Assembly (NCBI GenBank): GCA_038736825.1
Contig: JAVYME010000047.1
Coordinates: forward strand, 1-6,010
DNA: 6,010 bases
DNA from: Candidatus Iainarchaeum sp.
Lineage (GTDB): Archaea > Iainarchaeota > Iainarchaeia > Iainarchaeales > DTGL01
Direction: 5' to 3'
Of this stretch, positions 1 through 5,553 are shown in pieces; position 1 is the stretch's first letter; every line of letters begins with the position of its first letter. The notes beneath the pieces are model-generated. The model did no database searches. It was not told the origin of the DNA and was given only the letters and a program-made list of their open reading frames with translations. The position numbers and the translations under genes are program-made.

Positions 1-649
1 CCCATACTCCGACTCCAAGGCCCCAGGCCTCTTCAGGACTGCAATTTTGTTTATATGTGCAGGGCTGGATTTGGTTGATTTCAGCCTCAGTATAAGTGTC
101 GCATGAAACGTTTGGAAGATAGCATTTTCCTCCGAGAAAGGATGCCGGGCTTGACCTCAAGCCGTGAATGTAAAACCGAACCATTTTGCCTGTCTTGTTG
201 TTTATGTAGTCTATTGTGTTGCCGATTTTTGTAAAGTCGTCGTCCATGCTTCCAGAAGTGTCCATGATGAAGTGGATTTCCACATTGGGCTGTGCCGTCA
301 CTTTAAGGTCGGGAATGTTCAAGTAATAGTTTTTTTCTCCATAAAAACCGTCAAACAATTCTTTCAATATGTTGTAGTCGTCAACTGTGTGGGGGCCGTA
401 CTGCCTTGAGCCGGCCCCGTAATAGGAATAGTTTGCGATTATTTCCCCGATTGTTTCCCCTGTTTGTGGTTCAACGATTTCGAGCAAGGCGTCAAAGCTT
501 TGCTCTAGGCGTTTTTCTTCAGCAAAGGTTTCCATGTCCCTGGTTGCCTGTGCAGCCTGGTTGAGCCTGTCCACTTCCACAAAAATCAGGGCTGCAAGGA
601 ACAAGCCCACAATGAATAATGCTGAAAGGATGTTTGATGTTTCAGCCAT
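1..649 (-). CDS. von Willebrand factor type A (vWA/MIDAS) domain protein with an N-terminal transmembrane helix; partial, C-terminus runs off the left edge
   Basis: This ORF is absent from the supplied track because it has no in-window stop. My manual minus-strand translation from the ATG at 647-649 stays open through nt 2 (216 codons): MAETSNILSALFIVGLFLAALIFVEVDRLNQAAQATRDMETFAEEKRLEQSFDALLEIVEPQTGETIGEIIANYSYYGAGSRQYGPHTVDDYNILKELFDGFYGEKNYYLNIPDLKVTAQPNVEIHFIMDTSGSMDDDFTKIGNTIDYINNKTGKMVRFYIHGLRSSPASFLGGKCYLPNVSCDTYTEAEINQIQPCTYKQNCSPEEAWGLGVGVW... A hydrophobic helix spans aa 7-24. A hydrophobic strand is followed by the DxSxS MIDAS motif (D130-T-S-G-S134, nt 248-262), an amphipathic helix, and a second hydrophobic strand (MVRFYIHGL). 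This is the canonical opening of a vWA fold. The ATG directly abuts the upstream TGA (TGAATG), and GTGA lies 7 nt upstream. Confidence 0.8.
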   Translation of the reverse strand, partial: MAETSNILSALFIVGLFLAALIFVEVDRLNQAAQATRDMETFAEEKRLEQSFDALLEIVEPQTGETIGEIIANYSYYGAGSRQYGPHTVDDYNILKELFDGFYGEKNYYLNIPDLKVTAQPNVEIHFIMDTSGSMDDDFTKIGNTIDYINNKTGKMVRFYIHGLRSSPASFLGGKCYLPNVSCDTYTEAEINQIQPCTYKQNCSPEEAWGLGVGVW

Positions 650-1442: not shown

Positions 1443-1874
1443 TTAGCCTTCAATTCTAATGGCTTTTGTAGCCTTGTCACACCTCACCTTTAGCGTGCTT
1501 GGAATCGTTAGGTTTGCTGGTGAAACCATTAAATTGCAGGTTTCACAGACATTGAATTTGTTGAAATCTGTTTCCAGGGAAAGCTTTGTTATTGGTTTCC
1601 CATAGTCTTTTTCTTCTGCATTCACTACGTGCACTATTCCGCAGTCCCTGTCCTCGCGCCCGAAATTGCAAGAGCGCCAGCAGTCTGAAACCATTCCCAG
1701 GAATGCATTGTAATTGATTTTTTGAAAGGTGTTTTGGTCCGCAGGCTTTCCACCCAGCAGTTGTGTGAGGTTTTCCTGCATTTTTTGAAAGTCAAAGCCG
1801 CCTATGAAGCCAATCACCAAAAAGCCAGCTATCACTGCAAAAAAGAAGAACACCAGCACTTCTATTACCTGCAT
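1443..1874 (-). CDS. small membrane or pilin-like protein: N-terminal hydrophobic helix plus a 6-Cys globular domain (hypothetical)
   Basis: The track ORF is 1443-1898, but its first codon is TTG and it overlaps the micro-ORF. The ATG at 1872-1874 is preceded by GGTGA (1879-1883) plus AAAA, which favours the shorter 143-aa form: MQVIEVLVFFFFAVIAGFLVIGFIGGFDFQKMQ... It has a single N-terminal hydrophobic helix. The soluble domain carries Cys residues in the pattern C-x3-C-x8-C ... C-x2-C ... C. The stop is TAA at 1443-1445. Confidence 0.7.
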   Translation of the reverse strand: MQVIEVLVFFFFAVIAGFLVIGFIGGFDFQKMQENLTQLLGGKPADQNTFQKINYNAFLGMVSDCWRSCNFGREDRDCGIVHVVNAEEKDYGKPITKLSLETDFNKFNVCETCNLMVSPANLTIPSTLKVRCDKATKAIRIEG

Positions 1875-1878
1875 TTTT

Positions 1879-1974
1879 TCACCATTTAAGCGCGCCAAGC
1901 GCGTAAATTATCAAGAGCGAGAGCGCAGCAAGCCCTATCAGTATTTCAATGATCTGCCAGGTCGTCCTGCTCAT
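1879..1974 (-). CDS. 31-aa hydrophobic micro-protein (candidate minimal pilin-like or Flp-like subunit, or a small membrane subunit)
   Basis: This ORF is not in the track. My manual translation gives ATG(1972-1974) AGC AGG ACG ACC TGG CAG ATC ATT GAA ... TGA(1879-1881), which encodes MSRTTWQIIEILIGLAALSLLIIYALGALKW. The ATG overlaps the FlaJ-like stop as ATGA. A strong SD, GGAGTGAT (1981-1988), lies 6 nt upstream. The next gene's RBS begins at this ORF's stop codon, so it fills the gap exactly. Confidence 0.6.
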   Translation of the reverse strand: MSRTTWQIIEILIGLAALSLLIIYALGALKW

Positions 1975-3866
1975 CCGCCCATCACTCCAGAGAAAACATA
2001 GTTTGTAAAAACAAATATTCCTAACAATAGCATTGAGCTGAAAACACCAAAGCCTGTCAAAAGAGTGCTGAAAATTGTTTTTCCAATTTTGTGCCTGTCT
2101 GAGCCGTATTTTATGTTTGCAAGGAAGGTTCCAAGGACCACAAGGGTCAAGATTATGTATACGCCAACTATTGCGAGCACAATGGTTGGCGGGATTATGG
2201 TTGAAGGATCAACAAGTTGCAGCGAGAAGTCTTTTAAGCCCACGCTTCTTGCAATGCCTTCTATTTCCTTGCTTATGAATTCAAGCGACATTACTATGGC
2301 TACTGCCATTATCACTGCAGTGGATGCAAGGATTGGTGCAAGCGCTTTGACTGAAACGCTTACAGTTGCAAATGTGTCGTTCAAGAGCGTTCTCAGGTAA
2401 TTATCAAGCCTGAAAATTGAAAGAGTTTGCGAGCGTATCATTTTCGCTGATTTTGCCGCACTCGCTATATCTATGTCTGCAAAGTGCACTATTCTGCGCA
2501 TTATTTGAACAAGCCTTTTTGAGGCAATTATTTCAGGCAGTTTTGTTTCAACAATTTCACCCAATGTTTTCTTGGTGTTATACAGTTCTTTGGTTATTTC
2601 ATTTAAGATTTTTACTACAGCGTGCTTTTTGAAGCCATGCCTAATATAATCGCTTTTCACATCCTGTATTATGCTTTCCATTGGCCTGTTCAATACAAGA
2701 TAACTGCTTATTATTTGGAGCAAGTGTGGAACATCTTCCTCTACCTCGTTCATTTCCTGCCAGGTTTTTTCATTCAAGGTAATGTACCTGAAAAGGTAAA
2801 TGGATATTCCTGCAACTATGCCAAAGAGCATGAGCCATACATTGAAGAGTGATTCAAAAGCATATTCTCTTGCCACCCCTGTTGGCGTGGACATATCAAC
2901 TTGCATGAAGTGAATTATTGCAGGTATTGCAAGTATTATCATAAACCCTGCACAAAGATAGGCAAAGCCTGGCGGCATTTTCTTGAATTTTGGTGACATT
3001 GAAAGGTCTATTGTGTTAACCTGAACTCTGTTCAATGCAAACTGCATTGCAAAAAGCATTAGCAGTGCCGGGCAGGAAACATTGTAAATGAAGATTAGCA
3101 TTGGCACATTTATCATATTGGGTAAAAAAATTGAAATTAGGGGAAGCATTATTAGCGACATCATTGGCAGCATTACCCCTATTGAAATCAGGCTTTTGGC
3201 TTGGTTTGAAAGGGTTTCAGTGGAACGCTTGCCGATATTGTAATAGCTTTGAATTATGGTTTTAATGCATTCCCTGAGCATTGGCTCCCTTTCCTTCAAT
3301 GGTGCCAAGGATGCTGTTTGAATCATGTTTAAGCCTTTCACGAATTCTGGGTTTATTTCCATCCATTTTGGAATGTATTCCTCAAAGGCTTCCCCCAAAG
3401 TGGAATATTTTTTGTTCTCCAGCTTTTGCTGGATGTCCCTGAATTGTTTTCCCATAGTGCCAGTAAGTCCTTTAGTGGTTTCAATGAAGGCAAATTCAAG
3501 GCTTGTGTTTAGGCTCAAATAATTGGCTATTTCAAGCAATGCTTGTAGCATTTCTTCTTTTTGCTTTAGAATGCTTTGAGTGTAATAAATGTTTGCACCG
3601 TAAAGGTAGGCGGCAAGCGGGATTAAGACAGAACCAAAAAAGAAAAGGTATGCCAAGAGCTCTAGCAAAGGATGCCCTGTCATGGCGTTCAATATATAGA
3701 AAAAAAAGCCTGTTAATCCCAGCCCTAAAAACCAGATTGTCAAACCTGAAATGAATTCTCCAGAAGTATAAGGAAATTCCACTTGCTGGAATTTTTTTTC
3801 CACCATAGAGGATTTCTTGAAGATTTTGAATTTTCTGCCTGTTTCGTAAACGAAATCAAAGTACAT
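1971..3866 (-). CDS. type IV filament platform protein, FlaJ/ArlJ / TadC / PilC (T2SS-F) family, polytopic membrane protein
   Basis: I count about 9 hydrophobic TM segments arranged as 2 TM, a roughly 130-aa cytoplasmic helical domain, 4 TM, a second roughly 135-aa helical domain, then 3 TM. The internal duplication typical of T2SS-F proteins is visible: IANYLSLNTSLEFAF (nt 3486-3530) aligns with ISSYLVLNRPMESII (nt 2670-2714). The gene sits immediately downstream of the secretion ATPase. The track start at 3920 is a TTG that overlaps the ATPase by 32 nt. The ATG at 3864-3866 (MYFDFVYETG...) follows the ATPase TAG (3889-3891) and is preceded by AGTGA plus AAAAA, so I prefer it (631 aa). The 630-650 aa fused two-domain size matches archaeal FlaJ-type proteins rather than the split bacterial TadB and TadC. 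Confidence 0.85.
   Translation of the reverse strand: MYFDFVYETGRKFKIFKKSSMVEKKFQQVEFPYTSGEFISGLTIWFLGLGLTGFFFYILNAMTGHPLLELLAYLFFFGSVLIPLAAYLYGANIYYTQSILKQKEEMLQALLEIANYLSLNTSLEFAFIETTKGLTGTMGKQFRDIQQKLENKKYSTLGEAFEEYIPKWMEINPEFVKGLNMIQTASLAPLKEREPMLRECIKTIIQSYYNIGKRSTETLSNQAKSLISIGVMLPMMSLIMLPLISIFLPNMINVPMLIFIYNVSCPALLMLFAMQFALNRVQVNTIDLSMSPKFKKMPPGFAYLCAGFMIILAIPAIIHFMQVDMSTPTGVAREYAFESLFNVWLMLFGIVAGISIYLFRYITLNEKTWQEMNEVEEDVPHLLQIISSYLVLNRPMESIIQDVKSDYIRHGFKKHAVVKILNEITKELYNTKKTLGEIVETKLPEIIASKRLVQIMRRIVHFADIDIASAAKSAKMIRSQTLSIFRLDNYLRTLLNDTFATVSVSVKALAPILASTAVIMAVAIVMSLEFISKEIEGIARSVGLKDFSLQLVDPSTIIPPTIVLAIVGVYIILTLVVLGTFLANIKYGSDRHKIGKTIFSTLLTGFGVFSSMLLLGIFVFTNYVFSGVMGG
1981..1988 (-). 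promoter_or_regulatory. Shine-Dalgarno-like site (GGAGTGAT) embedded in the last codons of the FlaJ-like gene, serving the 31-aa ORF
   Basis: The mRNA reads TCT GGA GTG ATG GGC GGA TGA, which is S G V M G G stop. GGAGTGAT is complementary to the conserved 16S 3' end AUCACCUCC. A 6-nt spacer (GGGCGG) separates it from the ATG at 1974. Confidence 0.6.
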
Positions 3867-3888: not shown

Positions 3889-5553
3889 CTATTTTGAGGC
3901 AAGCTGGATTGTTCTGTCAAATGCTTCTTTGAATTCTTTTTCTGCTTTAGGGCTTTCCAATGGCTCTATTTGTTCAAACAAGTCTGCAAAAATCATGTTG
4001 GCTTTGAGAACGCTTGCTCCTTCGAGTCTTTCCGGAAAAACCGATGAAAGCCCAACAAATTTTTGTTTTGCCCAAGCCCTGAGCTCAATGTCCTTTATGG
4101 CAGCATCATATGACTTGTATGCAAGGGTTGTTTGCAGTATGTTTTTTATTATTTCAGATTTTCCATTCAACAGCTCTTTTGTTGGCTCAAGTGAATCGTT
4201 TTCTTTGTTGTAGAGCATCAAGTCTTGGAATTTTGGCTCTTTTTCCCAGTCCTTTAGCACTTCAGTTACCTGCGTTACTCTTCTCACATGATGCATTCCA
4301 GTGGCAGACTTAATTTGTTTTATGATTATTATGAGGTCTGTTACTTTGAACGAACCCCTTGGAACACCTAAGTCGTTGACAACGCGATCAAATACCCCGT
4401 ATGGAGTGTCAGCATGAATTGTTCCAGCAACAGTATTGGACATTGCACCAACACGCATTGCCTCATATAACACTCTTGCCTCTCCAGACCTGACTTCGCC
4501 CAAAATCAGGCAGGAATTTCCAAGCCTTAAACAGGTTCTCAAGCCTTTTTCTGGGGAAATCTCCAATCCTTCAGGGGAAAGCGCAGACTTTACTTTAAAG
4601 CAAAGAATGTCATAACCAAAATCTTTGTAAGCGTTTATTGGCAGTTCCTGAGTGTCTTCAATTGTTATAATCCTGTATTTGGGCAATATTTCCAGAATAG
4701 TTGCCCCCAAAAGGGATGTTTTACCAGAACCCCTTGGCCCAGTAAACATCATTGTTCTGCCGTGTGTCACCATGAAAGACATTAGCCCGGCAAAGAACGG
4801 AGAGAGCGTATTGTTTGAAATGAACAATGGCAGAGTCCAAGGCTTTTCCCTATGACGCCTGATAGAATAGCCTATGCCGTGTATTGAGAAAGGTTGCACT
4901 ACAGCTGCAACCCTTGCCCTTTGTTTTTCCACTATTAGTTCAGCATCAAGCTGGGGTTGTGCTTTGTTCAACGGCCTTCCTGACTCTATTTTCAGGAAAG
5001 TGGCAAGATAGTTGAGCAAGTCTATTGATGGATAAATGTTGGAGCGGCATTCATCGAATTCTTCGTGGACTATTCTGAAAGAGCTTTGGAATTCTGGGGG
5101 GTTAATGTTTATTTCTTGTATTTTGGGGTCGTTCATCAAGTAATCCAGGATGCCGTGCTGTTTTATCCATCTTACAAGCAATGGTGTTTTCATTTCGCTT
5201 GACTCGTATTCTTTGTGCAATTCCAGTAATTGTTTTAAGTTCAAGTCAAGGTTTGGAATTTCTATTGTGTAAGTTGGCTCCAGGTTTTGTTTTTCTTGCA
5301 CTATTTTCACACTGCTGTCTTTTATGGTGTAAGATTTCAATACTTTGCCTTTCACTGGTTTTATAAGGCAGTCAACAAAAAAAGGATATAACACATAAGA
5401 GTCATCCGTTAAATAGTGTTGTTTTGTGAAAAGCTTGTTTTTGTAAACTATCAAGTCTGTTTCTTTTGATGGTTTCACGCACTTGCTGCATACTGCAAAG
5501 GAGATGTCTCCCAACCCCATGCAATTGTTGCAATCCCTTGTAATATAGTTCAC
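3889..5553 (-). CDS. type II/IV secretion-superfamily ATPase, archaeal FlaI/ArlI / PilB-like (VirB11/GspE/TadA family), with an N-terminal Cys4 zinc ribbon
   Basis: All family motifs appear in order. Walker A is FTGPRGSGKTSLL (G272-T279, nt 4717-4740). The Asp box is RIITIEDTQEL (nt 4642-4671). Walker B is SCLILGEVRSGEA (about nt 4480-4512). The His box is VAGTIHADTP. The upstream N-domain signatures are DPKIQEININ and RVAAVVQPFSIHGIGYSIRRH. The Walker A lysine is at aa 278, as expected from my recollection of FlaI-type proteins. The N-terminus carries C8-x2-C11-x10-C22-x2-C25. The start codon is GTG at 5551-5553, forming a GTGA overlap with the upstream stop. AAGAGG (5564-5569) lies 10 nt upstream. 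The stop is TAG at 3889-3891. Confidence 0.93.
   Translation of the reverse strand: MNYITRDCNNCMGLGDISFAVCSKCVKPSKETDLIVYKNKLFTKQHYLTDDSYVLYPFFVDCLIKPVKGKVLKSYTIKDSSVKIVQEKQNLEPTYTIEIPNLDLNLKQLLELHKEYESSEMKTPLLVRWIKQHGILDYLMNDPKIQEININPPEFQSSFRIVHEEFDECRSNIYPSIDLLNYLATFLKIESGRPLNKAQPQLDAELIVEKQRARVAAVVQPFSIHGIGYSIRRHREKPWTLPLFISNNTLSPFFAGLMSFMVTHGRTMMFTGPRGSGKTSLLGATILEILPKYRIITIEDTQELPINAYKDFGYDILCFKVKSALSPEGLEISPEKGLRTCLRLGNSCLILGEVRSGEARVLYEAMRVGAMSNTVAGTIHADTPYGVFDRVVNDLGVPRGSFKVTDLIIIIKQIKSATGMHHVRRVTQVTEVLKDWEKEPKFQDLMLYNKENDSLEPTKELLNGKSEIIKNILQTTLAYKSYDAAIKDIELRAWAKQKFVGLSSVFPERLEGASVLKANMIFADLFEQIEPLESPKAEKEFKEAFDRTIQLASK

Follow-up and report, generated by a model that had tools for sequence, protein, structure and literature searches.

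A conserved micro-ORF between the platform gene and a leaderless pilin-like gene encodes a putative membrane component of a type-IV-filament-like machine in DPANN archaea

Comparison of homologous loci indicates that a 31-codon open reading frame (hereafter micro-ORF), located between a membrane platform gene and a pilin-like gene of a DPANN archaeon, is a genuine protein-coding gene under purifying selection. Its product represents a new, unnamed family, and it probably adds to a machine of known type a small component that had not been described before, rather than being a Flp-type pilin. No such component was found described in the literature, including the 2016 and 2019 Makarova surveys and a 2026 preprint that reclassifies the archaeal type-IV-filament systems. 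The reading that we put forward, to which we give an even chance, is that of a pilin-helix-like, membrane-resident partner of the neighbouring leaderless pilin-like protein and of the platform.

The window, that is the whole stretch of DNA analysed here, is a contig of 6,010 nt belonging to a Candidatus Diapherotrites (Iainarchaeia, DPANN) MAG, in which every gene lies on the minus strand. In the order of transcription, a 142-aa coiled-coil-like protein is followed by a 554-aa ATPase, a 631-aa membrane protein, the 31-codon ORF and a 143-aa protein; the gene of a 276-aa protein and the start of the gene of a larger protein lie 3' of the 143-aa gene (Table 1). The homologue of the 276-aa protein in locus L029 (6491-7240) gave a weak match to the LPXTG-anchor model (E = 0.008), and the C-terminal anchor of this protein could be a sorting signal. 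In the same locus, a PKD domain was detected in the homologue of the ~680-aa protein (7356-9404; E = 5.6e-15). We also considered that the ~680-aa protein might be TadG-like with a vWA domain, given a DTSGS motif resembling a MIDAS site, and rejected this assignment as Pfam gave PKD only.

Table 1. Features of the micro-ORF locus and their positions in the window
Feature	Position	Strand	Description
Platform gene, 631 aa as annotated (P0003)	1971..3866	-	polytopic membrane protein, highly divergent, GspF/PilC/TadC/FlaJ type
Micro-ORF CDS, 31 codons + TGA	1879..1974	-	MSRTTWQIIEILIGLAALSLLIIYALGALKW; putative single-pass membrane microprotein
SD-like GGAGTGAT	1981..1988	-	6 nt before the micro-ORF ATG, within the last platform codons (..S-G-V-M..)
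ATGA overlap	1971..1974	-	micro-ORF ATG and platform TGA, two bases in common
GGTGA	1879..1883	-	micro-ORF stop within the SD-like motif of the 143-aa gene
143-aa protein, N-terminus MQVIEVLVFFFF	1443..1874	-	pilin-like sequence features, no leader peptide
Secretion or type-IV-filament ATPase	3889..5553	-	Pfam T2SSE and N-terminal four-Cys cluster
Protein of about 250-276 aa	650-1480	-	Sec-type signal peptide, Pro/Thr-rich linker, C-terminal hydrophobic anchor followed by basic residues
Last gene, incomplete in the window	1-649	-	N-terminus MAETSNILSALFIVGLFLAAL.. of a ~680-aa protein

The signals that an earlier note had read around the micro-ORF were all recovered. The frame runs on the minus strand from the ATG at 1974-1972 to the TGA at 1881-1879 and encodes the peptide given in Table 1; the motif GGAGTGAT at 1988-1981 is separated from the ATG by the 6-nt spacer gggcgg. 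The ATG has its TG in common with the platform TGA (1973-1971), and the micro-ORF TGA closes the GGTGA (1883-1879), with the ATG of the 143-aa gene (1874) 4 nt later. The same note had ranked this ribosome-binding site as the best in the window. With -8.4 kcal/mol for the anti-SD duplex it is indeed tied for the best, a rank that is not unique to it, since three other starts reach -8.0 to -8.6.

The micro-ORF had also been considered unannotated, and it is indeed missing from the annotation of the Diapherotrites MAG record; the exact peptide is absent from a collection of 15 billion proteins. The flanking genes are numbered consecutively, QXK06_05885 for the 143-aa protein and QXK06_05890 for the platform, and the protein accessions MEM0360833 and MEM0360835 flank one accession. 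An exact look-up and a search of encoding contigs returned neither the exact micro-ORF peptide nor the exact platform. The expectation that automated callers would miss the gene holds for the NCBI annotation of the contig. Elsewhere, homologues without a name have been called, by JGI, ENA and Logan as well as in one NCBI entry, and database homologues measure 28-41 aa.

To follow the micro-ORF across genomes, metagenome and genome collections were scanned, yielding 60 syntenic loci, 58 of which have sequence downstream of the platform gene. A family HMM was run against every stop-to-stop ORF in all loci; each locus has exactly one matching ORF, which without exception lies downstream of the platform and shares its strand. 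Homologues are present in 41 of the 58 loci, with a length of 28-37 aa in 35 and a longer form in 6. The frame is open in all 29 distinct nucleotide versions, and the +1 frame of these 29 copies contains 158 stops in 841 codons. Within clades, the differences at codon positions 1, 2 and 3 amount to 214, 126 and 551, respectively, and the Nei-Gojobori dN/dS ranges from 0.04 to 0.4 for the pairs in which dS is not saturated. Taken together, the conserved open frame, the codon-position bias and the low dN/dS indicate that the micro-ORF is a protein-coding gene. Two of the observations on which the earlier note had made its claim depend, a reading frame kept in syntenic loci and a signal of purifying selection, are thus both borne out.

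The same data bear on whether the peptide itself matters. Spacing is very tight on both sides of the micro-ORF, so that coupled translation seems to be important, and longer forms occur in some lineages, both of which would suit a peptide of little function, either a degenerate remnant kept as a translational-coupling relay or a chance ORF. We consider this highly improbable: a chance ORF is excluded by the 29 open frames, and conservation of a transmembrane sequence would be superfluous in a mere relay. The dN/dS values argue against it as well, and Thr4, Ile9, Ile13, Val25 and Leu29 are near-invariant while the platforms are ~38-45 % identical; moreover, the length is kept at 28-37 codons. 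Two further origins were tried and rejected. A fusion of the micro-ORF to one of its neighbours, by read-through or frameshift, does not agree with offsets that vary in frame among loci, and a frameshifted C-terminal helix of the platform is countered by the recurrence of the overlap across many independent assemblies, as well as by loci L003, L023, L041, L056 and L060, in which the gene is detached from the platform.

The family consensus reads M-[N/S]-[R/K]-T-[I/L]-x-x-I-I-[E/G]-V-V-I-A-L-A-A-x-A-L-I-I-x-Y-V-x-S-A-L-K. All members have a hydrophobic stretch of ~22 residues, followed by 3-9 residues. Of 38 members, 29 have Lys or Arg at position 3; the next residue is Thr in 32, Ser in 4 and Ala in 2. 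Glu10 is found in 22 of the 38, which form an Iainarchaeia-like clade, whereas the 16 members of a Woesearchaeota-like clade have Gly, Ser, Phe or Ala at this position. The best-conserved positions (T4, I9, I13, A17, V25 and L29) form a stripe on one face of the helix, with a period of ~4 residues along its whole length, as expected of a specific helix-helix interface.

The window peptide has no match in Pfam at E <= 1. Among 28 family members compared with Pfam, no match to Flp_Fap, TadE or archaeal pilin families was found, and N_methyl matches were obtained for 3 of the 28 with E >= 0.17. An exhaustive profile search of 1.84 billion representative proteins returned 14 clusters at E < 1e-3, of which 13 are 30-41 aa long, the remaining one being of 81 aa with a Cys-rich tail. 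Long forms with the same N-terminus are Cys-rich and 93-95 aa long in loci L013, L019, L034 and L039 (proteins P0039-P0044). The long form of L032 carries a thrombospondin type 3 repeat (TSP3; Pfam E = 4.7e-6), and that of L017 has a 995-aa body on the same N-terminus. Since Cys-rich tails and calcium-binding tails of the adhesion type are extracytoplasmic, the microprotein is predicted by homology with these long forms to have an N-in, C-out topology.

The MAGs whose loci contain the platform, the microprotein and the leaderless protein are labelled Iainarchaeia, Woesearchaeota and Micrarchaeota. It should be noted that the record of L035 is labelled Chloroflexi, and those of L041, L043, L045, L046, L048, L051, L054 and L055 Methanosarcinales; these labels probably reflect mis-binning or mis-classification and not the true distribution.

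The protein encoded after the micro-ORF is ~140 aa long and always begins with M-[Q/E]-x-x-E, with Met1 and Glu5 invariant in 28 sequences of this family. No in-frame leader upstream of it is conserved across loci. Given this start and the lack of a conserved leader, the N-terminus resembles that of an already processed bacterial-type pilin. In the window, the 143-aa protein starts with MQVIEVLV and has an N-terminal hydrophobic helix followed by a Cys-containing domain, and the family has conserved cysteines at C65, C69, C78, C110, C113 and C132 (numbering of the window protein). The family has no match in Pfam, a search with the 143-aa protein returned 3 proteins, and the AlphaFold2 model built from 3 sequences is poor (pLDDT 55.6). 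We therefore call this protein pilin-like because of what its sequence looks like. In locus L060, two genes of the ~140-aa family are arranged in tandem.

We then compared the linkage of the micro-ORF to its two neighbours. An ATGA or GTGA overlap between the micro-ORF start and the platform stop is present in 19 of 29 distinct loci, and in relatives the SD-like GGGGGTG sits within the conserved K-G-V codons of the platform C-terminus. The distance from platform to micro-ORF ranges from -8 to +1031 nt, and that from micro-ORF to the next gene from -1 to +13 nt in all 30 distinct loci. The tight coupling to the platform that had been claimed previously is supported, with the refinement that the micro-ORF is bound most closely of all to the leaderless pilin-like gene downstream of it. 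For example, a 206-aa gene on the opposite strand parts the platform from the micro-ORF in L060, and the micro-ORF still adjoins the gene whose product begins with METVE. Platform homologues without the M[Q/E]xxE protein family are also without the microprotein. In most loci, the codons for the conserved platform C-terminus F-K-G-V-L double as the SD-like motif, which reads GGGGGTG or GGAGTG (1975-1990 in the window), and the conservation of this C-terminus may in part stem from constraint on the RNA. In L026 (5009-5184), the closest relative in the genome collections, the platform ORF runs ~58 codons beyond the usual C-terminus before a GTGA overlap with a GTG-initiated micro-ORF; this extension may be an insertion that happens to be read through.

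Moreover, the microprotein segment W6-Q-I-I-E10-I-L-I aligns in register with the start of its neighbour, M1-Q-V-I-E5-V-L-V. Glu10 is paired with Gln2 of the neighbour in 14 loci, and residues other than Glu at position 10 with Glu2 in 13 loci, with 3 exceptions. This covariation is suggestive of a shared environment of the two positions; it follows the two main clades, and shared ancestry may account for it. Within the transmembrane segments of the platform, no column changes charge together with Glu10/Gly10 of the microprotein. Eight platform columns discriminate Glu10 from Gly10 microproteins, and these are probably clade markers.

These linkage data also allow us to weigh a generic stabiliser of the platform, comparable to KdpF, AcrZ or CydX, for which the pilin-like features would be coincidental in a short signal-anchor helix. 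Such a function would agree with the ATGA overlap found in most loci and with a Shine-Dalgarno motif placed within conserved platform codons, with the conserved stripe on one helix face and with the lack of a pilin family match; in addition, identity of the microprotein tracks that of the platform and not that of the whole 140-aa protein (61/74/49 % for L026). We nevertheless judge it improbable, since the gene stays beside the pilin-like gene where the linkage to the platform is broken (L060, L003, L023, L041 and L056), and since the microprotein co-occurs with the M[Q/E]xxE family in every examined locus and is absent without that family. The extracellular adhesin-type tails of the long forms are also hard to reconcile with a platform stabiliser.

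The nature of the machine was assessed from its ATPase and its platform. The 554-aa ATPase matches Pfam T2SSE (1.5e-15), and its closest solved structures are GspE2 of A. fulgidus (2OAP), FlaI and CpaF. Its N-terminus contains a four-Cys cluster (5470-5553, minus strand; CNNC..12 residues..CSKC) located before the T2SSE core, which also occurs in L029 (2314-2400; CSNC..CAQC) and L012 (1270-1400) and may be a zinc ribbon; the matches to FlaI, GspE2 and CpaF begin at residue 127 or later. For the platform, 35 homologues with 41-84 % identity were found. Comparison of the platform family with Pfam gave sub-threshold matches for 18 of 30 members to the domain Spore_III_AB, which is GspF-like, and for 2 of 30 to T2SSF, and the profile had no significant match among PDB sequences. 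The AlphaFold2 model obtained with 30 homologues reached a pLDDT of 80.5 and a pTM of 0.75. When this model was searched with Foldseek, its cytoplasmic helical domain locally matched the cytoplasmic domains of OutF and EpsF with a probability of 0.94-0.96 and a target TM-score of ~0.67, and a PilC model was also matched; these are local matches to GspF domains, the global E-values being non-significant. The relatives of the ATPase and the GspF-type platform model together indicate that the locus is a divergent type-IV-filament-like machine, an assignment that relies on the predicted structure of the platform, for which the sequence evidence is weak.

We then asked how far the microprotein agrees with a Flp-type pilin, to which the earlier note had seen a loose resemblance. 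Five defining features were compared, and agreement is confined to the locus context, with GspF-type domains in the platform and an ATPase whose closest structures are 2OAP, FlaI and CpaF. As regards the G/XXXXEY leader, position 5 would be -1 if Glu10 is to be at +5; it is Ile in 19 members, Leu in 9, Thr, Ser and Val in 3 each and Met in 1, with no Gly or Ala in the 38. In place of the Tyr of the Glu-Tyr motif (PMC10710030), position 11 is Val, Ile, Leu, Thr, Phe or Met in the 38 members and never Tyr. No match to Flp_Fap (PF04964) was obtained for any of 28 members at E <= 10. Mature Flp pilins have 40-60 aa with a polar C-terminal half (PMC10710030), whereas the whole microprotein has 28-37 aa with 3-9 residues after the helix. 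Membership of the microprotein in the Flp family is thus not supported. The other possibility raised in the earlier note, a small integral-membrane accessory subunit, fits better: the predicted product has fewer than 50 aa and one helix, and its gene lies within the operon and would be co-translated.

The main rival reading is that of a true minimal pilin. In such a case, the MSRT or MSRTT leader would be cut or kept and a helix of ~26 residues would be polymerised as a major or minor subunit; platform and ATPase would extract the helix, which would polymerise by itself or in a 1:1 ratio with the 140-aa leaderless protein, as an extreme version of the Flp pilins or of the two-gene pilin of Geobacter. 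In type IV pilins (IPR012902, Pfam N_methyl), the leader is followed by 20-25 hydrophobic residues, of which the fifth is often Glu. The N-terminus of the microprotein is like a class III signal peptide in having Lys/Arg3, a small residue at position 4 and then a hydrophobic stretch; where Glu10 is present, as it is for 22 of the 38 members, it would fall at +5 or at +6 according to where cleavage is placed. The register with M1..E5 of the next protein points in the same direction, and the long forms resemble modular pilins that bear adhesin-like modules. Furthermore, in the Woesearchaeota-like loci L051 and L054, a canonical prepilin (MRKKG/TEKPIEIF; MVRSRKG/TEQPIEIFVALFVILAVAL.., 190 aa) is encoded ~46-90 nt after the platform stop and fills the slot of the microprotein and leaderless protein pair. 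Pilins made of a helix only are known, the mature Flp pilin of Caulobacter having 45 aa (PMC10710030).

Against a minimal pilin, the hydrophilic leaders of class III, which a prepilin peptidase cleaves, "invariably" have Gly or Ala as their last residue (PMC10191384). At the candidate -1 positions of the microprotein, almost every member has Thr, Ser, Ile, Leu or Val; the one pair of Lys/Arg and a small residue is at positions 3-4, with Thr mostly at position 4. Glu10 is absent from the Woesearchaeota-like clade, and the Pfam comparisons described above gave no pilin family match beyond the marginal N_methyl ones. In addition, the surface of the Tad pilus is formed by the polar C-terminal half of a 45-residue helix (PMC10710030), whereas with only 3-9 non-hydrophobic C-terminal residues a filament made of this peptide alone would be hydrophobic outside. 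A major pilin would also not be expected to be translationally coupled to the platform gene. In the loci inspected, no prepilin peptidase gene was found within 4 kb. On balance we regard a minimal pilin as somewhat unlikely.

We therefore return to the partner of the leaderless pilin-like protein and of the platform, and propose how it might work; both the partner and the role are what we infer from patterns of sequence and gene order. The ~30-residue single-pass microprotein would be a dedicated part of a type-IV-filament-like machine specific to DPANN archaea. Its helix would correspond to a "headless" pilin N-terminal helix, with a short polar N-terminus, Lys/Arg3, the near-invariant Thr4 and ~22 hydrophobic residues, and, in the Iainarchaeia-like clade, a Glu about five residues into the helix that may lie in register with Glu5 of the neighbour (WQIIEILI and MQVIEVLV). 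The microprotein would stay in the membrane at roughly 1:1 with its neighbours and probably at a low level, both deduced from translational coupling. There, the stripe of I9, I13, A17, V25 and L29 would pack on the N-terminal helix of the pilin-like protein and/or on transmembrane helices of the platform. As an adaptor or primer, the microprotein may orient, shield or hand over a pilin-like subunit that has no leader of its own, and it would not form the bulk of the filament. Incorporation into the filament could explain the pilin-like features equally well, namely the Lys/Arg-Thr pair, the Glu, the adhesin-like long forms and the prepilin of L051 and L054. A bolder extension, which we hold to be quite improbable, is that the leaderless pilin-like subunit and the microprotein form a 1:1 two-helix filament unit, or that the microprotein provides the leader function in trans, in both cases without prepilin processing.

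Most DPANN archaea depend on a host, and the machines on their surface are foremost among the candidates for contact with it. Their type-IV-filament-like loci, proposed in general terms by Makarova and colleagues, are largely "dark matter" (PMC6393860). The present analysis defines a conserved three-gene core in such loci, consisting of the platform, the ~30-aa microprotein and the leaderless pilin-like protein. The microprotein is below the size kept by most annotation pipelines and is nameless everywhere; its family would be worth adding to the detection models for archaeal type-IV-filament systems. A class III leader and a prepilin peptidase are regarded as common to all type IV filaments; if the microprotein pairs with the leaderless subunit, filament subunits could here be made and handled without either of them.

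Among known systems, KdpF, AcrZ and CydX are small single-helix accessory subunits, which represent a functional kind and not a homologous family. The microprotein has in common with them a size below 50 aa, one transmembrane helix and a gene that lies within the operon of the complex and is often missed by annotation. It differs in having no sequence relation to them, in being tied to a pilin-like gene and in having longer homologues with extracellular domains.

The Flp or type IVc (Tad) pilins are likewise very small and consist essentially of a single hydrophobic helix, with an early Glu that part of the microprotein family shares, and their loci also combine a CpaF/FlaI-type ATPase with a platform of the TadB/C or FlaJ type. 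For the Tad system, an archaeal origin is assumed (PMC10710030). Unlike these pilins, the microprotein has no Gly-ended leader, no Glu-Tyr motif, no Pfam match and no polar C-terminal half, and it is about half their mature length; its gene follows the platform gene and is coupled to it, whereas the Flp gene is a separately expressed first gene.

PilA-N and PilA-C of Geobacter sulfurreducens provide another parallel, in that the gene of a short helix-only polypeptide lies directly upstream of that of a larger partner, with a strict adjacency that suggests a two-polypeptide unit. PilA-N has 65 aa, a canonical class III signal peptide, Phe1 and Pro22, and PilA-C is a globular domain only (PMC10710030). 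The microprotein, in contrast, is half the size of PilA-N and non-canonical. A split pilin of the Geobacter type was rejected for our locus: the two genes are adjacent, but a hydrophobic N-terminal helix, in which M1 and E5 are invariant, is already part of the downstream protein.

Finally, ArlF/ArlG (FlaF/FlaG), pilin-like membrane proteins of archaeal type-IV-filament systems that are not cleaved, and the Tad pseudopilins TadE/TadF, all of them low-copy machine or minor components (PMC4858521, PMC10191384), also have a pilin-type N-terminal hydrophobic helix and are encoded with an ATPase and a platform. They differ from the microprotein in their folded extracellular domains of at least 100 aa, and no sequence similarity between them and the microprotein was detected. 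By analogy with these systems, the microprotein would work most like the helix of a minor or pseudo-pilin, or like a small accessory subunit.
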